From sequence record ON470593: DNA of 32,923 nucleotides; one strand, 5' to 3'. A program made the position numbers and the translations under genes. The DNA comes from Escherichia phage vB_EcoM-683R1. Under the pieces are notes generated by a model, which was not told where the DNA came from, did no database searches, and worked only from the letters and a program-made list of their open reading frames with translations. Shown here one piece after another: positions 16,296 through 29,918 of this stretch. The number at the start of each line of letters is the position of its first letter. The stretch's first letter is position 1.

Positions 16296-17441
16296 ATGGC
16301 ACAGGGCTTGCCTGTATCAAACGTTGTTAATGTTGATGTGATCATGTCGCCGCGTGCAGCATCAGGGCGAAATTTTGGTGCATTACTCATTCTCGGCCCG
16401 TCCACAATCATTCCGGTAAGTGAGCGCATTCGCCGTTATTCTGCCGCGGAAGATATTGGAAAAGATTTTGGCGTGGAATCACCAGAATATAAAGCTGCGC
16501 AGGTGTTTTTCTCACAATCACCGAAACCTCAGGAGGTTTTTGTTGGTCGTTGGGTGAAAACGAAGGGAGACAGCGAACAGGCCACGCCTGAGACGCTGGA
16601 GCAGGCTGTGAATGCCATGCTTGATTATACTTCATGGTATGGGCTGGGGATTGCAGACGATGCAGATATTCCGGATGCAGACTGGCTGAAAGTGGCTGCG
16701 GCGATCGAATCCTCTTCTGTAAGCCGTATTCTGGCGATTACGACAAGCGATGAGAAATGCCTGCAGACTGCATCCAGAGATGATTTGGCATCAAAACTGA
16801 AAAGCGCCGGATATTCACGCAGTTTTATACAATATTCATCGGGTAATAAATTCGCTGCGTTATCTGCATTTGGCCGGGCATTCACGGTTAATTTCAATGG
16901 CAGTAATACCGCGATTACGCTCAAGTTTAAGCAGGAGCCGGGTGTCGGGTATGAAACACTGACAGTCAGCCAGGCATCGGCACTTGATGCAAAAAACTGC
17001 AATGTGTTCGTGTACTACCAGAATGATACAGCTATCCTCCAGCAGGGAGTGATGGCTAACGGCGATTTCTTTGATGAACGCCACGGCCTGGACTGGTTAC
17101 AGAATTATGTGCAGACCAACCTCTATAACCTGCTTTATACCAGCACCACGAAGGTTCCCCAGACTGAAGCCGGTATTACCCGACTGTTATCAAATGTTGA
17201 AAAATCACTGGATCAGGCCGTTCAGAATGGACTGATTGCTCCGGGCGTATGGAACGGTGGCGACCTTGGCCAGTTGTCATCAGGTGACACGCTGCCCAAA
17301 GGTTATTACGTATACGCCCAGCCGCTGGATGAACAGGCACAATCAGAACGTGAAGCCCGTAAGGCTCCGGTGATTCAGGCTGCAATAAAACTTGCAGGCG
17401 CGGTTCATTACGCTGACGTACAGATTAACGTTGTTCGCTAA
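16296..17441 (+). CDS. Contractile tail sheath protein
   Basis: 381 aa; followed directly by a tube-sized gene, chaperone and tape measure (Mu L-M-like order). Confidence 0.75.
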
Positions 17442-17451
17442 GGGGAAGTGA

Positions 17452-17892
17452 ATGTCTACCTATTCTTTTATGGATGTCACTGCGACGCTGACCGGGCCGA
17501 CCGGTTCGATTGACCTCGGGTACGGTTCGGCAAGTTCTGAAGAGGGGATTGTGGTTGCGATGGGCGGTCCTAAAAACACCATGACCATCGGTGCTGATGG
17601 TGAAGTGATGCACAGCCTCCATGCAGATAAAAGCGGGACGATTACCGTTAACCTTCTGAAGACATCACCGACAAATAAAAAATTGTCGCTGGCGTATAAC
17701 GCACAGAGCCAGTCTTCTGCCACATGGGGGAATAACGTTATCGTTATCCGCAACAAGGTCAGCGGCGACATCATCACGGCACGCAGTGTTGCGTTCCAGA
17801 AACAACCGGATAACGCCAACGCTAAAACCGGTAATACGATGCCGTGGGTGTTTGACTGCGGCAAGATTGACCAGGTTCTCGGGGAGTTTTAA
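17452..17892 (+). CDS. Tail tube protein
   Basis: 146 aa; between sheath and chaperone. Confidence 0.7.
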   Translation: MSTYSFMDVTATLTGPTGSIDLGYGSASSEEGIVVAMGGPKNTMTIGADGEVMHSLHADKSGTITVNLLKTSPTNKKLSLAYNAQSQSSATWGNNVIVIRNKVSGDIITARSVAFQKQPDNANAKTGNTMPWVFDCGKIDQVLGEF

Positions 17893-17895
17893 TGC

Positions 17896-18348
17896 ATGGA
17901 ATTCGAAATTAAAGGCGTGAAATATCGCACGGCAAAACTCAGCGTTTTTGACCAGCTGAAAGTGACCCGCAAACTTCTGCCGGTGCTGGCAGGAATGATG
18001 TCAGATTTCGGGAGTATTCGCTCCCGTTTGCCTGCTGACGGCAAAATCGACACCGTGAAATTCGAACAGTTAAAACCGGTGTTTGAAACCATGCTCCCGC
18101 GTATCGCTGAGGAACTGTCTTCCCTGACCGAAGATGACACCGATGCGATTATTCATCCCTGTCTTGCGGTGGTATCGCGGCGTCATATGGACGGATGGGT
18201 GCCGGTATTTACCCAGGGCGAACTGATGTTTGATGATATTGACTTGCTGGTCATGCTGCAGCTGGTGGCGCGGGTGGTCGCCGATTCGCTGGGAAATTTT
18301 TTGCCTACACCCCTTACCAGCACGACGCAGAGCCTGCAACAGGGCTGA
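17896..18348 (+). CDS. Tail assembly chaperone (G-like)
   Basis: 150 aa; between tube and tape measure; slippery run near the 3' end. Confidence 0.6.
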   Translation: MEFEIKGVKYRTAKLSVFDQLKVTRKLLPVLAGMMSDFGSIRSRLPADGKIDTVKFEQLKPVFETMLPRIAEELSSLTEDDTDAIIHPCLAVVSRRHMDGWVPVFTQGELMFDDIDLLVMLQLVARVVADSLGNFLPTPLTSTTQSLQQG

Positions 18349-18536
18349 CGTTTAACAGCCTGCCGGACGGGCTGTCCTACCTTCTCAATCCGGTTGACGC
18401 CGGGTTAATTCCTTATACAGCACTTAAAGATGGCTCTGTCGATTTGTATGACATTGCTCTCTTGAATGACCATCTGGCGGTAAAAGCGGATAACCAGCGA
18501 CGCATTGAGAAATGGAGAGAGGATAATGAACGCTGA
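17896..18536 (+). CDS. Predicted -1 frameshift-extended chaperone isoform (GT-like)
   Basis: Slippery heptamer T_TTT_TTG at 18297-18303; the -1 frame stays open from 18303 to TGA at 18534-18536 (…EPATGLTFNSLPDGLSYLLNPVDAG…IEKWREDNER), ending inside the tape-measure start region. Confidence 0.4.
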
Positions 18537-20541
18537 AACTATTAAAGATTTCCTCGTCTCGCTTGGCTTCCGTGTGGATGATGCAGGAGCGAAAAAGTTC
18601 GGTTCTGTCCTCGCCGGTACAACTGCAAATGTCATCAAAATGGGGCTGGCTGTTGAAGGGGCTGCGCTGTCCGTGGTGGCCTTCACGGCTAAGATCGCCT
18701 CCGGCCTGGATAATCTTTACTGGGCGTCACAGCGCACCGGCGCGACGGTCCAGGGAATTCAGTCTATTGGCTATGCGGTTTCGCAGGTTGGCGGCAGTGT
18801 GGACGCTGCGCGATCTTCTCTGGAAAGCCTCTCCCGGTTTATTCGTAACAATCCCGGAGCAGAAGGCTTTCTGAATCGCCTGGGCGTACAGACCCGTGAT
18901 GCCAGCGGTAACATGCGTGACATGGCTGCTATCTTTACGGGCGTTGGACAGAAACTCAGCAGCATGCCGTATTACCGGGCTAACCAGTATGCGCAGATGC
19001 TGGGCATTGACGAAAATACCCTGATGGCTATGCGTCGCGGAGTGGGGCAGTTCAGCGCTCAGTATTCAGAAATGGTGAAAGCGATCGGATTTAATGCCGA
19101 TCAGGCTGCCTTATCGTCAAACCGGTTTATGACCTCGCTGAAATCGCTCGGTGAAATGGCCAGGATGGCGCGGGACAAAATCGGATCGAATCTTGCGGAC
19201 GGACTGGCGGGGCAGATTGATAACNNNNNNNNNNNNNNNNNNNNNNNNNNNNNNNNNNNNNNNNNNATAATTGAAAATTTTCCCAAAATTGAAGTCACCA
19301 TCACAAAGGTCATAAAGGGGATCCTCTGGCTGGGTGAGATAGTCGGGCGGGTAGCATTTCGGATAGTCGATGGTGTCGGAGATATCATCGAGTGGTGGGG
19401 GAAACTGGATGCCGAAACGAAAACCCTGATAGAGGTTATCGGCGGTCTGGTTGTCGCCATGCGGATACTTAACTCTACTTTCTGGATGTCACCTATAGGG
19501 CTGATTACCGGTCTGATCGTGGCTCTCGGTCTCTTGTGGGAAGACTACAAAACATGGAAAGAAGGCGGTAACAGTCTTATCGACTGGGAAAAATGGCAAC
19601 CGGCAATAGATAAAGCGAAGGATGCGATCACCTGGCTTCGTGATCACCTTCTGGAACTAAAAGATGGTGTTGGCGGCTGGCAAAATGCACTGGAAATCCT
19701 TGGTACATTCATCGCGGGTGTCTGGGTATCCAGGGTTCTGGGGGCTTTCGGGAAAATATCAGGTTTGCCGGTCCCGCCGTGGTTAAAAGGCTGGATGGCT
19801 TATGCTGCGTATTTGTACTCTGATCGCGAAAATATTGGTGCCAGTGCGAAGTCATCCTGGGATTACACGAAACAAAATATTGGAGATTCATTGCGCTGGC
19901 TTGGCATTGATACCGATTTTGGTCGTAATCCTCATACCGTAAAAGGCGCAAATATTCAGTCAGATATTCCAGGTGCTGAGCCGGAACAATATGCACAGGC
20001 TACGAAACGAGGAGAACGGAATAACAATCCGGGAAACCTTAATTTTGCTGGTCAGGCAGGGGCTTCTCTTGAACGCCCGGGCGGGCGATTTGCCAGATTT
20101 GAAACTGCCTTTGATGGATTACGGGCTCTTGCTCGTCAGTTAATGCTGTACGCCGGACGGGGAATAAACAGTGTGGAGAAAATTATCTCTACCTGGGCAC
20201 CTGCGTCTGATAATAACAACACAACAGCGTATATCAGGGCTGTATCGCAACGACTGGGAGTGGATCCCCGGGCTGCCCTGAATATGAGCGATCCGCAAAC
20301 CATGTCAGCATTGATGAGCAGCATTATCCAGCATGAGAATGGAAGAAATATCTATTCTCGAGAGCTGATTAATAAGGCTGCCGTGGCGGGAATTAGTGGC
20401 AAAGTGACAGAGGTTAACCAGCAAAATACCTACCACATTTACGGTGGCGGAGATCCGCACGCTGTCGGTAATGAGGTTGCACGTCGGCAACAGTCTGCAA
20501 ATGCTCAGGTCATGCGAAGTAATCAGGTGAGGGTGGGTTAG
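18505..20541 (+). CDS. Tail tape measure protein (TTG start; interrupted by an N-run)
   Basis: 678 aa; transmembrane-like central segments (…LIVALGLLWEDY…); follows the chaperone; C-terminal region with NNPGNLNF motif. Confidence 0.75.
   Translation: MRNGERIMNAETIKDFLVSLGFRVDDAGAKKFGSVLAGTTANVIKMGLAVEGAALSVVAFTAKIASGLDNLYWASQRTGATVQGIQSIGYAVSQVGGSVDAARSSLESLSRFIRNNPGAEGFLNRLGVQTRDASGNMRDMAAIFTGVGQKLSSMPYYRANQYAQMLGIDENTLMAMRRGVGQFSAQYSEMVKAIGFNADQAALSSNRFMTSLKSLGEMARMARDKIGSNLADGLAGQIDNXXXXXXXXXXXXXXIIENFPKIEVTITKVIKGILWLGEIVGRVAFRIVDGVGDIIEWWGKLDAETKTLIEVIGGLVVAMRILNSTFWMSPIGLITGLIVALGLLWEDYKTWKEGGNSLIDWEKWQPAIDKAKDAITWLRDHLLELKDGVGGWQNALEILGTFIAGVWVSRVLGAFGKISGLPVPPWLKGWMAYAAYLYSDRENIGASAKSSWDYTKQNIGDSLRWLGIDTDFGRNPHTVKGANIQSDIPGAEPEQYAQATKRGERNNNPGNLNFAGQAGASLERPGGRFARFETAFDGLRALARQLMLYAGRGINSVEKIISTWAPASDNNNTTAYIRAVSQRLGVDPRAALNMSDPQTMSALMSSIIQHENGRNIYSRELINKAAVAGISGKVTEVNQQNTYHIYGGGDPHAVGNEVARRQQSANAQVMRSNQVRVG
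19225..19266. other. Assembly gap / masked bases (42 N) inside the tape measure gene
   Basis: Run of n characters; length is a multiple of 3, so frame is preserved. Confidence 0.99.
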
Positions 20542-21128
20542 TGGATATTCTCTCTACACTTTTTCATCAGCAGAGCAGAAAAATAGGAATGATTGTTCCC
20601 AGTGTTGTTATTTCAGAGAAGCATACAGATATGCTTGAAATAACAGAGCATCCGGTAGAGGTCGGGGCCGCTGTCGCTGATCATGCCTATAAAAAACCGT
20701 CAGAAGTGGTGATGGAGGTTGGTTTCGCCGGTGGCGGCGCATTGCTGGATTTTGCCAGTAACCTGACGGCTACCAGCCTGCTCGGCCTGAGTCCTCAGCA
20801 GACGTATCAGGAGCTACTGGGTCTGCAGGAAAGCCGTATCCCCTTCGATGTGGTAACCGGTAAACGGCTGTACAGCAACATGTTGATCCGGGCGCTGGAA
20901 GTGACGACGGACAAGACAACCGAAAACGTCCTGTCCGCCGTCCTCACCCTGAGGGAGGTCATTATCTCCCGGACACAGCAGATTACCGTCGCGGATAAAA
21001 CCAACATGAAGGAAGGGGCCAGCACGTCGGCGGTACAGAACAGCGGCAACAAAACCACAAAGCCTCCAGATACTTCACTGCTGAAAAGCATCACGGGTAA
21101 CGTGGCGTCATTACTGGGGGGCGGCTAA
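20541..21128 (+). CDS. Tail/baseplate protein (Mu N-like position)
   Basis: 195 aa; GTG start overlapping the tape-measure stop. Confidence 0.5.
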   Translation: MDILSTLFHQQSRKIGMIVPSVVISEKHTDMLEITEHPVEVGAAVADHAYKKPSEVVMEVGFAGGGALLDFASNLTATSLLGLSPQQTYQELLGLQESRIPFDVVTGKRLYSNMLIRALEVTTDKTTENVLSAVLTLREVIISRTQQITVADKTNMKEGASTSAVQNSGNKTTKPPDTSLLKSITGNVASLLGGG

Positions 21129-21430
21129 TGACAATTCAGGAAATTCCGCTGACAGCGGACAACCAGCAGTTCAGCATCGTCCTGGGTGGTGTCACCTGGC
21201 GGATTAGCATCATATGGCGCGATCTGTACTGGATTATGGACCTGCAGAACGACAGAGGGGAGCCGGTAATCTCCGGTATTCCTCTCGTCACTGGTGCTGA
21301 CCTGCTGGCGCAGTACGCCTGTATGGGGCTTGGTTTTAAGCTGGTGGTGGTCTGTGATGACAACACACAGGATTACCCCACAAAAACTGACCTGGGCGGT
21401 CGCAGCCATTTACTGGTATCAACGGAGTAA
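21128..21430 (+). CDS. Small baseplate-associated protein
   Basis: 100 aa; ATGA-coupled to the upstream gene. Confidence 0.5.
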   Translation: MTIQEIPLTADNQQFSIVLGGVTWRISIIWRDLYWIMDLQNDRGEPVISGIPLVTGADLLAQYACMGLGFKLVVVCDDNTQDYPTKTDLGGRSHLLVSTE

Positions 21431-21432
21431 GC

Positions 21433-22071
21433 ATGTCACAGAACTGGATGAGACATTTCGAGCTGCAGCTTGTGGACGGGAACGGTCAGGGAATTGAGCT
21501 AAGTGATTTCAAAGTCACCTTTACGATCGACTGGTTCAACATCAGCAGCGCGTCCCGGGTAGGGACTATCAAAATTTATAACCTCTCGGCAGATACTGTG
21601 AACCGAATTACCGGGCAGGAGTTTTCGAAAGTGCGTCTGATTGCCGGTTACGACGGTATCGCGCCGGAGGTGTCAGCAAGCGACGTAGGGACCGTGCGGG
21701 AAGTTGACGCGGCGGACGTGGGCCAGAGAGATGGCCGCAACTACGGACTGATTTTCAGCGGTGAAATTCGCTACTCGGTCACAGGAAAAGACAGTCCGGT
21801 TGATACCTACGTCCTGATTCAGGCAGCAGATACTGATCTGGCTTTTGCTACCAGTATAACCTCACAGACGCTGGCTGCCGGTTACACGGTCGCTGATGTG
21901 AACCGTGCGCTGATGAAAGACTTCGAAGCCAAAGGCGCGACCGAAGGCCTGACGCCTGAAATGCCTGCTACTGTATTCCCCCGGGGGCGGGTACTCTTTG
22001 GCATGACGCGGCATCTAATGGATAACGTAGCCGGACAATGTGGCGCAACATGGCAATTCGTGGACGGTTAG
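21433..22071 (+). CDS. Baseplate protein (Mu P-like, N-terminal part if the next ORF is the same gene)
   Basis: 212 aa; ends at TAG 22069-22071 that is in frame with the next ORF. Confidence 0.5.
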   Translation: MSQNWMRHFELQLVDGNGQGIELSDFKVTFTIDWFNISSASRVGTIKIYNLSADTVNRITGQEFSKVRLIAGYDGIAPEVSASDVGTVREVDAADVGQRDGRNYGLIFSGEIRYSVTGKDSPVDTYVLIQAADTDLAFATSITSQTLAAGYTVADVNRALMKDFEAKGATEGLTPEMPATVFPRGRVLFGMTRHLMDNVAGQCGATWQFVDG

Positions 22072-22077
22072 CGCCAG

Positions 22078-22497
22078 ATGGTGGTGAATAACGAATATGT
22101 TCACGAAGCGATTGTGCTCAACAGCGCTACCGGGCTTATTGGAATGCCGCAGCAGACTATCGGTAACGGCGTAAACGTCCGCGCGCTTATTAATCCGAAC
22201 ATCCGGGTTAACGGGCTCATTCAGCTGGATCAGGCTTCCGTCTATCGTACCGCGTTGTCGAACAACGATATTGCGATGGCTGGTGGTCAGATCACCGACC
22301 AGAACACGGACGGAAATATCACGCTCAGCGGCACCACATCGCAGCCTGCCAGCATCGCAACGGATGGCGTTTATATTGTGCGCGGGATTATGTACACTGG
22401 CGACACAAGGGGCCAGGCGTGGTACATGGATATGATGTGTGAAGCGCGTGGCGCGGCGGATCTTGTTTCCTCATCAGCGAGGGAAAGAGGGCTTTAA
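22078..22497 (+). CDS. Baseplate protein (possible C-terminal continuation of 21433..22071)
   Basis: 139 aa; same reading frame as the upstream ORF, separated only by TAG-CGC-CAG. Confidence 0.5.
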   Translation: MVVNNEYVHEAIVLNSATGLIGMPQQTIGNGVNVRALINPNIRVNGLIQLDQASVYRTALSNNDIAMAGGQITDQNTDGNITLSGTTSQPASIATDGVYIVRGIMYTGDTRGQAWYMDMMCEARGAADLVSSSARERGL

Positions 22498-22832
22498 TGA
22501 AACGGTTATGTTTGGCGTTAGTTATGATGGTTACTGCTCCGGCGATGGCTGCAATTCAGTGCGGCAACTACACGATGACCGGTGACGGAATGACTGTTAT
22601 TAACGGTGAAACTGTCACATCACAGAAGATAAAATTTCTGGGAAAAGATGGTGACTATTCAAACATGAAAATGGACATGGGCCTGATGCCTTCCCGTGAT
22701 GGTAACAATTACGGCTTTGAGTTTGTGAAACGTAACGGAAAAGCTTTCCTGAACGTCCAGCTGCTGCAGAACAGCATGGACGCGCCGAAAATCATTGGAT
22801 CTTTCCCGTGTAAAAAAGTGAGCAGCAAGTGA
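22497..22832 (+). CDS. Small secreted/periplasmic protein with Sec signal peptide (cargo gene inside the baseplate module)
   Basis: 111 aa; MKRLCLALVMMVTAPAMA|AIQ signal peptide; two Cys in the mature part; lower GC than flanking tail genes. Confidence 0.6.
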   Translation: MKRLCLALVMMVTAPAMAAIQCGNYTMTGDGMTVINGETVTSQKIKFLGKDGDYSNMKMDMGLMPSRDGNNYGFEFVKRNGKAFLNVQLLQNSMDAPKIIGSFPCKKVSSK

Positions 22833-23341
22833 CAGTTGATGATGATCCTTTGAATTCATTTCAAGACCCTGACTTTCAGGAACTTCTCGGCGGAATTGAT
22901 ATTACTCTTGTTATAAGGTTTTTTAATTATTTTTCGCGTTTCGAATATGCGTTAAAAAGAATTAATTTCAAAAAAACTGATCGTAGAAATTATCTAATCG
23001 GTGCTGACTGGAGCCGCTACGCTACTGATGATACGCGGCCTTTATATCCTACTGGAAATAGAAATGTCGATAGGGCAGTTGAGTATCTATGTCAGCAACC
23101 TGTGAAGCAGCAGAGGCATGATTTTTCGTGGGAGGATAAACCTCCAATCGAACCTCATTCTCTTGCTGAAGCATTAAAGCAGATCCCGTATATAAGAAAT
23201 AATCTCTTTCACGGCGGGAAGTATTTACGTCCCGCCCCCGTTCGTGATGAAAAGTTATTGAAATACTCTATTTATTTGATGCAGTTGTGTTTGATAACTG
23301 ATAATCAGCTTTCTGAATACTTTAATACTATCCACCGATAG
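22829..23341 (+). CDS. Hypothetical protein with HEPN-like R-x4-H motif (RNNLFH); cargo gene
   Basis: 170 aa; GTG start overlapping upstream stop (GTGA); AT-rich codon usage; followed by an intrinsic terminator. Confidence 0.55.
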   Translation: MTVDDDPLNSFQDPDFQELLGGIDITLVIRFFNYFSRFEYALKRINFKKTDRRNYLIGADWSRYATDDTRPLYPTGNRNVDRAVEYLCQQPVKQQRHDFSWEDKPPIEPHSLAEALKQIPYIRNNLFHGGKYLRPAPVRDEKLLKYSIYLMQLCLITDNQLSEYFNTIHR

Positions 23342-23401: not shown

Positions 23402-24171
23402 ATGGCAGTAACTGACCAGACCCGCAGTGGCGATCTTGCCGAAACATTTAAATCTGAACGGGAAACAACAAAGAACCAGATCCGTGTCGCCTTGCCTGGC
23501 ATTATTCAGTCATTCGATCCTGACGCGGTGACGGCGGTTGTGCAGCCAGCTATCCGGTCAGTTGAAAAGGATAACGACGGTAACCGCATTACCAAAAATT
23601 ACCCATTGCTGGTGGATGTGCCAGTGGTATTCCCGCGCGGCGGAGGCTGTACGTTGACTTTTCCGGTAAAAGCTGGGGATGAGTGTCTTGTCGTTTTTGC
23701 CGATCGTTGTATTGATTTCTGGTGGCAGAGCGGCGGGATACAGGAGACGGTTGATGACAGAATGCATGATTTATCGGATGCGTTTTGTATTGTCGGTCCC
23801 CAGTCGCAGGCTAGGAAGATTAGCGGTATTAATACCAGTGCCACACAGTTGCGTAGTGACGACGGCAGCACCTATTTTGAGCTTAATCCTGATACCAGGA
23901 AAATTAAAATTGTCGCTCCGGGGGGGCTTGATGTGGTTGCCCCCCTGGCTGATTTTTCTGAGAAAGTAACCATTCATGGCCTGTTAACCTGGATGGGGGG
24001 CATGGTGGGGTCTGTGGNNNNNNNNNNNNNNNNNTTTCTGGTGTGGCTTCAAAAATCACTGGTGCTGTTGAGTTTTTGGGGAGCGTGAAGGCTAACGGCA
24101 AGCCAATCGATGATACGCACACTCATGGTGGTGTTCAGCGCGGTGGAAGCAGTACCGACGGGGTAAACTGA
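23402..24171 (+). CDS. Baseplate spike/hub protein (Mu V / gpV-like), interrupted by a 17-N gap
   Basis: N-terminal part 23402-24017; C-terminal part continues in a different frame after the gap (…SGVASKITGAVEFLGSVKANGKPIDDTHTHGGVQRGG…) to TGA 24169-24171. Confidence 0.55.
24018..24034. other. Assembly gap / masked bases (17 N) inside the baseplate spike gene
   Basis: Run of n characters; length not a multiple of 3, so the apparent frameshift is an artefact. Confidence 0.99.
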
Positions 24172-26400: not shown

Positions 26401-27194
26401 TGGCGAAAAATGACTTTAAAGCGTTTGCAACGGATCGAAATGCCAATGTTATATCGCAGGAGGAATGGGAAGCGTTGCCCGCGCTTTTATCTGGATTTAC
26501 AGCAGGGAAAGCCTCCAGTGCGCAAGTCAATAAGGTTATTCGGCAGGCCAGCTTTATTGCTGCAGCTCTGGCCCAGTTTGTAAGTGATAAAACGCAACGG
26601 GATGTGCTTGATAATGGTGATCTGCCCGGTTTTGTTGAATTGCTGGGATCGGGGTTTGCTGTTGAATACCTGAGCCGCAAGAATCCGTTTGGCGATATCA
26701 AATCGGACGGCACGGTGAAAACAGCTCTCGAAAACCTTGGTTTGGGAGAAGGTGCCCCAGCTATTGGCGTTCCGTTCTTCTGGCCGTCCGCTGCAATGCC
26801 AAATTCTGTCATCGACAGCTGGTCCGGTATGGTGTTTTTGAAGTTTAACGGGGCGAAATTTTCTGCCTCTGATTACCCTGTGCTGGCGAAAGTGTTTCCT
26901 TCGCTGGTATTACCTGAAGCCCGCGGTGATTTCATTCGTATCTGGGATGACGGGCGAGGTGCAGACGGTGGTCGCGAATTATTAAGCTGGCAGGCAGCTA
27001 CAAACTTTTCTCAGTTTGCCGGGAATATAGGCGATGGTGCGGGCCACACAATTAATTTTCATGATGGTATCGCCGGAAATCAGCCAGGATTTTCACGATT
27101 TAATTTCACCAGTAACTCTGTGGGTGATGGTGTGAATTTTGTTGCCGTCAGACCGCGAAATATTGCATTTAACTTTCTGGTGAGGGCTAAATGA
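26400..27194 (+). CDS. Tail fibre protein with switchable C-terminus (constant part fused to variable part Sv)
   Basis: Start ATG 26400 overlaps upstream stop (TGATG); tail-collar-like motifs (PFFWPS…[17 protein letters not shown]…[12 protein letters not shown]); crossover site inside the gene at about codon 113. Confidence 0.75.
26725..26750 (+). promoter_or_regulatory. Invertase crossover site L (hix/gix-like 12-2-12 site) inside the tail fibre gene
   Basis: CTCTCGAAAACC-TT-GGTTTGGGAGAA; right half-site and core identical to the inverted partner at 28547-28572. Confidence 0.7.
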
Positions 27195-27787
27195 TGACCC
27201 CAATTTTTGATGAAAATGGACTGGCTACAGTGCCGGGCGATATGCGTTGTTTTTATTATGATGCTGAAACATCTGAGTATACGGGCTGGTCTGATGAATA
27301 TATTAATACTGGCGTAAGTATGCCCGCCTGTTCCACTGGAATTAACCCTGGCGAAAACATTCCGGGAAAAGTGGCTGTATTTACAGGTAAGGGATGGAGC
27401 CATGAAGAGGACCATCGCAATGAGACTGTTTACTCAATCGAAAATGGCGCAGCTGTTACAGTGGATTATATCGGTGCCATCAAAGATGGTTATGTCACGC
27501 TTTCACCGTTAACGCCATACGATAAATGGGATGGTGAGAAATGGGTGACGGATACCGAGGCACAGCATAGCGCCGCAGTAGACGCGTCAGAAGCACAGCG
27601 CCAGTCACTGATTGATGCAGCAATGGCTTCCATTAGTCTGATTCAGCTGAAATTACAAGCCGGGCGGAAACTGACGCAGGCAGAAACAACCCGGCTTAAC
27701 GCTGTGCTGGATTACATTGACGCGGTGACGGCAACAGATACCAGCACCGCGCCGGATGTCATCTGGCCTGAACTGCCGGAGGCGTAG
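27191..27787 (+). CDS. tfa: Tail fibre assembly protein (Tfa)
   Basis: 198 aa; conserved C-terminus …[30 protein letters not shown]; ATGA-coupled to the tail fibre. Confidence 0.8.
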
Positions 27788-28199
27788 GCCATTCAATATC
27801 TGGCGCACCGGAAGTATCGACCAGTTCCAGTGCGTCCAGATAATCCAGCCACAAATTATATTGCACCAGTTCCTCACCTTTCAGGCGACCAATCGCCGCT
27901 TTACCAGGCCATTGCTTACTGTTTATGTATTCGTTGACCTGATTAATCAATTGCTGCTTTTTCAGTTCGGCTGCGGCAATTTGTTCCTCATGAGTTGGCG
28001 GTGGAATATCAATCCATGCAGGCATTCCGTCGATGACACCTCTGTATTTTCCTTCTGGTGCTTCCTTCATAAATTCGGCAGCAACAGTGTCGTCAATTTC
28101 GATTCCATCATCGGGCCATTCGCCGGATTCCTGATAAGCGATTTTAAGCTCCACAGGGAAAAACGCATTTTTATCGGCACTGAAAATATATTTCTGCAT
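27759..28199 (-). CDS. Alternative tail fibre assembly protein (Tfa'), opposite orientation
   Basis: 146 aa; conserved C-terminus …[26 protein letters not shown]; convergent with and overlapping tfa. Confidence 0.8.
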   Translation of the reverse strand: MQKYIFSADKNAFFPVELKIAYQESGEWPDDGIEIDDTVAAEFMKEAPEGKYRGVIDGMPAWIDIPPPTHEEQIAAAELKKQQLINQVNEYINSKQWPGKAAIGRLKGEELVQYNLWLDYLDALELVDTSGAPDIEWPTPPAVQAR

Positions 28200-28201
28200 T
28201 T

Positions 28202-28546
28202 CTACCGTCCTATCGAAATATAACTGAATCTGTATTGCTGTGAGATATCACTGGTTGCCACACGCCACGCTGAATTACTGATATGTTCAAAATTTACAGA
28301 CAAAACCTGCGGGGCAGGATTCGACGGGTCTGACTGAACGGCATCAGACATAACACTGACTGAAATCATCGGCTGATTAGGGAATGGTATAGGGAAGTGT
28401 CCACTGATAAAGCGGGTCGTGTTTCCTGAAAAAGTGCCAAACTGAACAATATATCCACCTGGTAGCCTGAACCATCCCGAACCAGAAGCGAATGCTCCCA
28501 TATCCGGTATCTGATTATCTCCTGTGCCCACATTCCGTTTTGCCGC
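28202..28546 (-). CDS. Alternative tail-fibre variable segment Sv' (promoterless; expressed only after inversion fuses it to the constant part)
   Basis: Minus-strand frame is open from crossover site R through TGA at 28202-28204; reads VGLGEAAKRNVGTGDN… with the core dinucleotide at codon positions 2-3, the same phase as in the plus-strand fibre. Confidence 0.6.
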   Translation of the reverse strand, partial: AAKRNVGTGDNQIPDMGAFASGSGWFRLPGGYIVQFGTFSGNTTRFISGHFPIPFPNQPMISVSVMSDAVQSDPSNPAPQVLSVNFEHISNSAWRVATSDISQQYRFSYISIGR

Positions 28547-28572
28547 TTCTCCCAAACCAACGTTTATGAAAA
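28547..28572 (+). promoter_or_regulatory. Invertase crossover site R (hix/gix-like)
   Basis: TTCTCCCAAACC-AA-CGTTTATGAAAA; inverted partner of site L; lies just upstream of the invertase start, as in Gin/Cin/Pin/Hin systems. Confidence 0.7.
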
Positions 28573-28626
28573 TGCAGAAATAACGAGCAAATGGCATCAT
28601 TCCTGCTTTTGTCAGAGGGATCCACT

Positions 28627-28941
28627 ATGCTTATTGGCTATGTACGTGTGTCAACAAATGACCAGAACACAGATCTACAACGTAATGCGCTGAACTGTGC
28701 AGGATGCGAGCTGTTTTTTGAAGACAAGATAAGCGGTACAAAGTCCGAAAGGCCGGGACTGAAAAAACTGCTCAGGACATTATCGGCAGGTGACACTCTG
28801 GTTGTCTGGAAGCTGGATCGGCTGGGGCGCAGTGTGCGGCATCTTGTCGTGCTGGTGGAGGAGTTGTGCGAACAAGGTGTTAATTTTAGTAGTTATGTTA
28901 TTACAGGTGGGGGATTTCTCCCCCTTATGCAGATTTTCTAG
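28627..28941 (+). pseudogene. Serine DNA invertase (Pin/Gin/Cin/Hin family), 3'-truncated after about 90 codons
   Basis: MLIGYVRVSTNDQNTDLQRNAL…KLDRLGRS…GVNF matches the invertase catalytic domain (active-site Ser in VRVS); after GVNF the sequence diverges (SSYVITGGGFLPLMQIF*) and the resolvase C-terminal/HTH domain is missing; DNA turns AT-rich at about 28888. Confidence 0.8.
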
Positions 28942-28945
28942 TTAA

Positions 28946-29791
28946 CTATTGGCGAAGTGGCCATATTTTTCTGTTTTTTAAAAAACTATCTTCAACTATA
29001 TAACTGCAACAATGTTCACTAAGGCCATAAAAACTAATTATTCCATATTTATGAGAAGCTATATCAGACAGTTCTGCTAATACTGTGGCAAGCCAACGAG
29101 CGATGCTAAGAGAATAGAATCTTCCCCACTTTTGAACAATGGTATTTTGTCCAGTACGGATGGAGGCTGATATAAGGTCTTGCATAATGTTGGTACTTTC
29201 ATTCATATACATGACCGTTGTATACGGTGAAAGAGTGGCATTGATAAACCTAGCATTTTCTTCAACACGTCTTTGTTCAACTGTATAATAATAATGTTTT
29301 TCAAGGATACTCTCGGCTACTTCTCCCCACCATTTATTAATAGGTTCATTATTGGTTAAATTGGGGCTGCTTAATGAGGAGAAATTTGCGTAACGTCCCC
29401 GTCGGGCATCAGCAAAGGAATCTAAACATTCAAGTATTTTGTAGGTAATTTTATGTGTAGGACGTGAATATCTCAGAGATAGTTGCATTTTTTTAGAAAT
29501 ACTATCAACCTCGTTGGTTAATTCAATGAGCTTATGTCCAAATTTTCTTACAATATTCTCATCAGGCATTTTCCCTTTGTGTTCAATGGCATAGTGTGCA
29601 ACAAGTATTAGTTTAGCAAGTCTCTCAAAACCTACAGAAAGCCCAAAAAATGCTGTGTAATATTCACCTATTTTGTCTGCATAATTGGCTTTACCTATGG
29701 CTGTTGCCCCAGAACCAATGAGCTGTGTAACTAAAGATGCTTCTCGGCCCAGAGCGTGCCATGCTGGAATATCCCAGGGATTTTTATTCAC
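28946..29791 (-). CDS. Hypothetical protein encoded in the AT-rich islet; candidate accessory/defence gene, function unknown
   Basis: 281-aa ORF, GTG start with AGGAAA RBS 8 nt upstream; low GC; located at the prophage end where cargo genes typically sit. Confidence 0.6.
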   Translation of the reverse strand: MNKNPWDIPAWHALGREASLVTQLIGSGATAIGKANYADKIGEYYTAFFGLSVGFERLAKLILVAHYAIEHKGKMPDENIVRKFGHKLIELTNEVDSISKKMQLSLRYSRPTHKITYKILECLDSFADARRGRYANFSSLSSPNLTNNEPINKWWGEVAESILEKHYYYTVEQRRVEENARFINATLSPYTTVMYMNESTNIMQDLISASIRTGQNTIVQKWGRFYSLSIARWLATVLAELSDIASHKYGIISFYGLSEHCCSYIVEDSFLKNRKIWPLRQ

Positions 29792-29918
29792 TTTATTATT
29801 TTCCTTTGCTCATAAATTTAAATTGTTTGAGTATCTCATAAAATATAAGGAGATGGTTAAGGTTGTTGATCGCATATAATAGCTATTGAAAGTCAAGAAC
29901 TCGGTTTTATGTTCTACC

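Follow-up and report, generated by a model that had tools for sequence, protein, structure and literature searches.

The frameshift in tail chaperone genes is said, after work of Xu, Hendrix and Duda in 2004, to be conserved in long-tailed phages, and the G/GT pair of phage lambda was reportedly studied by Levin, Hendrix and Casjens in 1993 and by Xu, Hendrix and Duda in 2004, 2013 and 2014. Here we describe a putative case in 32,923 nucleotides (nt) of Escherichia phage vB_EcoM-683R1 (sequence record ON470593; this whole stretch is called the window, and all positions are counted on it), where a tail assembly chaperone gene carries the slippery run GGGAAATTTTTTG and the −1 frame beyond this run encodes the Pfam domain DUF6889. 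Comparative evidence makes it highly probable that the locus is a programmed −1 ribosomal frameshift of the lambda G/GT and P2 E/E+E′ kind, and the chaperone gene very probably gives rise to a longer second protein by a slip on the T run. The lambda products have different partners, the tape measure protein for G and the tail tube protein for T, and a ratio of about 30:1 (PMC5009743). The E/E+E′ gene of phage P2 shifts on TTTTTTG without downstream structure (PMC3091744, summarising Christie et al. 2002), and P2-type shifts are two- to threefold more efficient than that of lambda (PMC5009743). In Pakpunavirus, a downstream 'hypothetical' open reading frame (ORF) was reinterpreted by comparative genomics as a −1 extension of the chaperone, with a T-rich and conserved slippery motif, GTTTTT (PMC12846349).

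The features of the locus in the window (aa, amino acids; CDS, coding sequence) are the following:

17896..18348, plus strand: tail assembly chaperone gene (G-like, 'TAC-N'), 150 aa, frame 0 (Pfam Phage_TAC_15, E-value 4.9e-31; PHROG 'tail assembly chaperone')
18243..18348, plus strand: overlap in which frames 0 and −1 are both open, 35 codons (the −1 frame opens after a stop at 18240-18242)
18291..18303, plus strand: putative slippery run GGGAAATTTTTTG, three overlapping in-frame heptamers (phase, synonymous-site conservation)
18303..18536, plus strand: predicted −1 frame extension ('T' part), 77 codons plus TGA 18534-18536 (Pfam, PHROG, conservation, AlphaFold)
18372..18536, plus strand: 'DUF6889 family protein' CDS of RefSeq/PGAP, 54 aa, CTG start (RefSeq annotation)

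The locus would work like P2 E/E+E′ but is no sequence member of the P2 family. Both belong to contractile-tailed temperate coliphages and have the chaperone between the tube gene (FII in P2) and the tape measure gene (T in P2), an identical T_TTT_TTG near the chaperone 3′ end, no downstream RNA structure, and a −1 ORF that ends a few bases inside the tape measure gene. The protein families differ (E is Phage_TAC_7 and E′ is Phage_P2_GpE, as compared to Phage_TAC_15 and DUF6889 here), and no homology to P2 gpE or E′ was detected (BLASTP E-value 0.7; hhalign probability 0.4%). P2 has GGT TTT TTG with a single heptamer where the window has the 13-nt triple run, and its products are 91 and 142 aa long, as compared to 150 and a predicted 213 aa. 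The P2 shift was demonstrated by experiment, whereas the shift proposed here is predicted from sequence comparison. With lambda G/GT the locus shares the gene position, the (here predicted) −1 shift near the chaperone end and the long minor product with a common N-terminus, and the first heptamer in the window, G_GGA_AAT, resembles G_GGA_AAG of lambda. Lambda is, however, a siphovirus, and its heptamer ends in G and uses tRNA-Lys, whereas the window is a myovirus prophage with AAT (Asn) in this place, a codon on which A-site slipping is poor in E. coli.

A true homologue is found in Klebsiella phage Mulock (CPT_Mulock_014/015, GenBank MN098327; about 60% protein identity), which has the same sheath-tube-chaperone-tape measure module and an identical GGGAAATTTTTTG run. 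The joined Mulock CDS is annotated as 'tape measure chaperone frameshift product', an annotation that is a prediction only, and the genome announcement of Mulock does not mention the frameshift. The TAC-N/TAC-NC pair of Pakpunavirus/Vandenendeviridae (Pseudomonas phage Adele) also comes from a myovirus, and the genus includes KPP10, the namesake of tube family PF11681; this is a lytic phage family different from that of the window, with a different motif.

In the chaperone frame the site reads CTG GGA AAT TTT TTG CCT. A sequence-only reading of the window had placed T_TTT_TTG at 18297-18303, about 45 nt before the chaperone stop, and the coordinates are correct: the heptamer is in frame with the chaperone, has the X_XXY_YYZ phase, and lies 43 nt ahead of TGA 18346-18348. 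The 13-nt run at 18291-18303, present in full in most homologues, contains G_GGA_AAT (18291) and A_AAT_TTT (18294) as well, each in the correct phase. The −1 frame is open from 18243 to TGA 18534-18536, which gives 79 codons from 18297 and 77 from the first post-shift codon at 18303, and its end overlaps the tape measure ATG (18526) by 11 nt; the 77 codons, the end point and the overlap with the tape measure start were all read correctly before. A productive −1 shift must occur within 18243-18348, since both frames are open there.

The −1 translation matches Pfam DUF6889 (PF21829) with an E-value of 1.2e-20 (73.4 bits vs a cut-off of 23.9) and phrog_4364 with 1.9e-23, and the DUF6889 domain is located at about 18411-18527 within the extension. 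From the shift site on, the consensus of the −1 peptide is FFARTPRQRD…LPxGED…ALKDG.VDL.DIALMND.LD.KADN..RI..WR. In the AlphaFold model of the extension, a disordered linker leads into a domain of three helices, of which the C-terminal one is long (pLDDT 84-94, residues 20-79). The two parts were modelled separately; the fusion taken together with G-only and T-only proteins was misaligned by MAFFT, and that alignment was left unused. The T-domain model has no match at E-value ≤ 0.001 among viral predicted structures (the best fold match is a 56-aa uncharacterised myovirus protein, E-value 0.055), sequence searches of solved structures with the chaperone and the extension gave nothing meaningful, and a literature search found no paper on DUF6889.

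Could an accidental heptamer have met an accidentally open −1 frame, with no function in either? TTTTTTG alone is not unusual, occurring 15 times in the window as compared to 8.9 ± 2.8 expected, which is what speaks for such an accident. It is the combination with the long −1 ORF and the Pfam match, not the heptamer alone, that puts the site beyond chance. There are 19 in-frame heptamers in the 15 kb of plus-strand genes, and a long −1 ORF follows only the three of the run and one at 21116; a −1 frame open for at least 79 codons is found at only about 2% of window gene positions, mostly adjoining a downstream gene. Together with the Pfam match, the frame relation kept in 157 of 159 homologues and the freeze of synonymous sites (both given below), this leaves coincidence scarcely conceivable, and the comparative data effectively refute it. 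As for the heptamer at 21116-21122, it is an in-phase G_GGG_GGC three codons before the stop of a Dit-like baseplate gene (20541-21128), where the −1 frame is that of the following gene (21128-21430, plug protein). In E. coli, heptamers rich in G shift very poorly, and the overlap of the two genes is a simple ATGA, so this heptamer is probably coincidental.

The comparison covered 8 annotated loci of phages, 71 loci from genomes (a single one for each species, 35–86% protein identity) and 80 viral contigs. The hallmarks of a frameshift are conserved over about 80 distinct homologous loci, with protein identity as low as 35%, in Enterobacterales, Achromobacter and a Methylophilaceae metagenome-assembled genome (MAG). 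Of the 161 sequences compared, 159 have a detectable T domain, which in 157 of them is in the −1 frame relative to the chaperone. Neither of the two exceptions is a counter-example to this relation: one (L009, Logan contig SRR23924998_45326, 1902-1908) has T7 for T6, which makes the predicted 213-aa fusion a single ORF, and the other (L042) has a second indel inside the domain. Frames 0 and −1 overlap by 16–127 codons in the homologues (median 36), and in every intact homologue a slippery motif is in frame at one and the same alignment column. The sequence-only reading had proposed comparing homologous chaperone pairs, naming a −1 frame closed by stops right after the heptamer as what would speak against it. 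The −1 relation (157/159) and the motif at a constant column bear the frameshift reading out, and the copies that deviate, L042 and L056, carry extra indels or deletions. L042 (Enterobacter sp. R1(2018), about 1973-2113) has the end of its T domain in the +1 frame as a result of the extra indel; L056 (Izhakiella australiensis, about 1869-2012) has a domain cut short by a deletion and a −1 frame that continues for 241 codons. These two rule-breaking genome copies look decayed.

Past the slip site, conservation switches from frame 0 to frame −1. Mean pairwise identity in frame 0 is 0.74 over the ten codons before the site; over the ten codons after it, the value is 0.34 in frame 0 vs 0.59 in frame −1. 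Codon usage at the site, counted in 81 distinct sequences with 60 conserved, degenerate codon columns scored, is close to frozen. Phe135 is TTT in 80/80 sequences (compare Phe112, with 47 TTC and 33 TTT), Asn134 is AAT in 75/75, Leu136 is TTG in 70/71 (other Leu codons are mainly CTG), and Gly133 is GGA in 74/80, vs 4/72 for GGA at Gly108. Codons 133–136 are all among the five columns of lowest codon entropy out of the 60, and the Leu codon that precedes GGA ends in G in 73/79. The reading of the site as a G/GT-like frameshift thus has the DUF6889 match, the frame relation and the synonymous freeze behind it.

Of the three heptamers, T_TTT_TTG shows the strongest conservation and is likely to be the main site of shifting. 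T_TTT_TTN is kept in homologues that have lost G_GGA_AAT (L035, L064, L069, L070, L021, L038, L057 and L077), where broken upstream forms (GGT AGT, GGC AGT, GGT GAT, CTC GGA, CTT GGA) are seen alongside an intact T_TTT_TTN; its last base can be G, T, C or A, and the six T's are constant. An alternative is that the ribosome does shift, with a substantial share of the slips earlier, on A_AAT_TTT (18294-18300) or G_GGA_AAT (18291-18297), which would yield …GNFFAYTP… instead of …GNFLAYTP… in a product of equal length. All three heptamers are in phase, and T_TTT_TTG by itself leaves unexplained both the GGA at Gly133 and the G-ending Leu codon before it. The two most distant homologues point the same way: in L074 (the Methylophilaceae MAG) the only heptamer is C_CCT_TTT, which puts the equivalent of the Phe135 codon in the A site, and L075 (Achromobacter) has G_GGA_AAT as its only remaining heptamer, with a T_TTC tetramer, at the same place. 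A_AAU_UUU also belongs to a class (H_HHU_UUY) that is among the best motifs in E. coli when a stimulator is present (Sharma et al. 2014). Without a stimulator, however, AAAUUUU was at background in the same reporter (0.070%), the GGA bias could be an E-site or context effect on slipping at T_TTT_TTG, and at least eight lineages without G_GGA_AAT and/or A_AAT_TTT retain T_TTT_TTN. The upstream heptamers are dispensable, since those lineages lost one or both and kept T_TTT_TTN. We therefore regard a substantial share of earlier slips as rather unlikely, and keep T_TTT_TTG as the candidate for most of the shifting.

The phase of the run also bears on transcriptional slippage, in which RNA polymerase would add one U on T6 and so produce an mRNA with the G-T fusion in one frame. 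One extra T does yield a fusion ORF, as seen in L009, and T7 (in six homologous lineages), T5 and probably T4 variants are found in databases. But T6 is short for productive slippage, and E. coli RNA polymerase slippage requires runs of about 8-9 or more. A recoding review is also given for this threshold of about 8-9 or longer (PMC5009743). L074 and L075 have only four T's and still retain a phased ribosomal motif, and the phase of the run relative to frame 0, which matters to ribosomes and not to the polymerase, is kept in every homologue; a long homopolymer conserved irrespective of phase, the mark of a transcriptional slippage site, was not found. We consider this explanation very unlikely as compared to a ribosomal shift. 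As to the run-length variants themselves, public assemblies hold T7, T5 and probably T4 forms (P0001, P0003 and P0121 are the proteins in the variant set). The tail of P0003 matches the +1 frame after the run, as T5 would give, and one protein reads …GNF-ERTPRQ…, as though from T4. These variants are either sequencing errors or real indels at a mutable run.

A further possibility is that DUF6889 is an independent small gene (54 aa from CTG 18372), with its own initiation or with reinitiation after the chaperone stop. This is how PGAP and many further pipelines annotate it, and some homologues have an ATG or TTG slightly upstream of, or within, the domain. In the window, however, the −1 frame has no ATG or GTG, and its only TTG codons (18444 and 18462) are inside the DUF6889 domain, which they would truncate. 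The invariant extension residues L22, P23 and G25 lie upstream of CTG 18372. No ATG, GTG or TTG is found upstream of the invariant LPxG in 60 of 76 homologous loci, only 1 has a Shine-Dalgarno (SD)-like sequence, and no promoter-like site was found between the two ORFs. Moreover, conservation of the −1 peptide reaches back into the chaperone ORF as far as the slippery run (0.59 vs 0.34 as given above), and the annotated N-termini are inconsistent: databases hold about 1,200 (>1,200) DUF6889 protein clusters as free-standing ORFs of 49–102 aa. Separate initiation is highly improbable in our estimate, and the RefSeq 54-aa CDS with a CTG start at 18372-18536 is probably an annotation artefact that covers the 3′ part of the extension.

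Several results weigh against a programmed ribosomal shift. Single-sequence folds of 18297-18400 and 18304-18360 are no better than shuffles (z 0.07 and −0.57), and RNAalifold on 27 diverse homologues gives a consensus of −0.23 kcal/mol with only two invariant pairs and no covariation, so that the downstream stem-loop or pseudoknot that the sequence-only reading suggested looking for is not conserved. No conserved SD-like sequence was found upstream at a useful distance either. In a stimulator-free E. coli reporter, UUUUUUG shifted at 0.118% and AAAUUUU at 0.070%, with a background of 0.055% (Sharma et al. 2014). Also, the case for a shift in this phage and its family comes from comparing sequences. 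The missing stem-loop is not fatal to the frameshift reading, because P2 with the same heptamer is also without structure (PMC3091744). An Rfam scan of 17800-18700 gave only a sub-threshold microRNA match (E-value 0.98). As a candidate stimulator we considered the SD-like GGGTGG at 18272-18277 and rejected it: it lies 13–19 nt from the heptamers (19 nt upstream of T_TTT_TTG) and varies in homologues, and its presence is explained by conserved Arg-Val-Val codons. The site is thus unlike stimulated sites such as those of dnaX and IS3, which have a hairpin or pseudoknot 5–9 nt downstream and/or an SD-like sequence upstream.

How a useful rate would be reached without a stimulator is suggested by the run itself. 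With the IS3 pseudoknot present, the H_HHU_UUY class shifted at 11.4%, vs 0.77% for UUUUUUG (Sharma et al. 2014). Bare heptamers are weak and yet P2-type shifts are efficient, so the native context must matter. The GGA bias and the G-ending Leu codon suggest a contribution of the entire 13-nt run, whether by offering extra slip sites or by providing context. With a lambda-like, an A_AAU_UUU-class and a P2-like heptamer, GGGAAATTTTTTG may offer three successive chances to slip and so give a useful rate without an RNA stimulator. The joint proposal that GGGAAATTTTTTG is a compound shift site and that DUF6889 is a frameshift-only domain of Phage_TAC_15 chaperones, never made as a separate protein, is one we put forward tentatively, as possible but doubtful in this full form.

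The mechanism that we envisage is as follows. Most ribosomes would read the chaperone gene to the stop at 18346-18348 and make the 150-aa protein, and a minority would slip one base back on GGGAAATTTTTTG. The slip is likeliest at T_TTT_TTG (18297-18303), with the P site holding tRNA-Phe on UUU and the A site tRNA-Leu on UUG; the predicted junction would then read …ADSLGNFLAYTPYQHDAE…. Slipped ribosomes would then read 77 further codons in the −1 frame to TGA 18534-18536, and the long product would be a 213-aa fusion (about 23 kDa) of chaperone residues 1–136, a flexible linker of ~25 residues and the three-helix DUF6889 domain. By analogy with lambda, the shared N-terminal part would coat the tape measure protein, the minor C-terminal domain would bring in the tube protein and thereby let the tail polymerise to its proper length, and both products would be absent from the virion. 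For this phage we infer the occurrence of the shift, its rate, the exact slip codon and the binding partners from these comparisons.

The window holds a temperate myovirus prophage of E. coli, and its right end carries host genes yfhH, tadA and mltF. The genes around the chaperone are the following:

16296..17441, plus strand: tail sheath gene (Pfam DUF3383, 4.4e-101; phrog_205 'tail sheath')
17452..17892, plus strand: tail tube gene, directly upstream of the chaperone (Pfam PF11681, KPP10_Orf10, 8.8e-61; also named Phage_Tube_PhiTE)
18526..20541, plus strand: tape measure protein gene, ATG 18526 (phrog_2276 'tail length tape measure protein', 2.4e-260; the PGAP start agrees)

With the order sheath, tube, chaperone and tape measure, the chaperone pair is found between the tube and tape measure genes, as expected of G/GT-type chaperones, and the N-terminal product belongs to a chaperone family. 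The sequence-only reading had described a conserved strategy at this position, with which both the gene order and the conservation of the site agree. Escherichia phage vB_EcoM-606R2 and prophages of many E. coli genomes have the same 1.35 kb from tube to tape measure (17452-18800), with 100% identity.

We note some further observations on the rest of the window. The tape measure gene contains an N run (19225-19266) in which 42 N appear to stand for ~12 nt, and the gene is 30 nt (10 codons) longer in the window than in the RefSeq copy. Another N run (24018-24034) is inside a gene annotated in RefSeq as a membrane-puncturing spike protein. An in-frame TAG at 22069-22071 divides a 354-aa gene of the tail/baseplate region (21433-22497; a hypothetical protein in RefSeq, with a weak Pfam match of its C-terminal part to baseplate hub gp41) into two ORFs, one of 212 and one of 139 aa. 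RefSeq prophage NZ_AP022003.1, which matches otherwise, has a Gln codon (CAG) here; in the window the prophage may be defective, or the TAG may be an amber variant or an edit of the sequence. Two small ORFs without a family match (22497-22832 and 22829-23341; one of 111 aa with a signal-peptide-like N-terminus, the other of 170 aa) are located between the baseplate and spike genes and are possibly accessory ('moron') genes within the tail module. At its right end (window about 27150-29800, and 30600 to the end), the prophage has a gp53-like fragment, a truncated recombinase pseudogene and two tail fibre assembly genes that face opposite ways, which looks like what is left of an invertible segment for tail fibres (host range); host genes yfhH, yfhb, tadA and mltF come next.

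The main value of the locus is for annotation. Most related phage records, including all RefSeq E. coli prophage copies examined, have a separate DUF6889 ORF or nothing; the 213-aa fusion is absent from the E. coli RefSeq copy for which the gene table was read, and other identical copies list the same product names. DUF6889 members are often misnamed 'NTP pyrophosphohydrolase' or 'lytic transglycosylase'. The phage strategy and the homologous shift in Mulock were already known, and no concept is changed; what is added here is the triple-heptamer run, a correction to the CTG-start ORF in RefSeq and the proposal that DUF6889 is a domain made only by frameshifting. The locus is a clean natural stimulator-free multi-heptamer site, usable for context effects on slipping. 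If DUF6889 is indeed the frameshift-encoded 'T' domain of one chaperone family, this would give a function to an unknown domain and correct about a thousand small-ORF annotations, and it would add the SEN34/Mulock-like temperate myoviruses of Enterobacterales to the two-isoform (−1 shift) rule of long-tailed phages.

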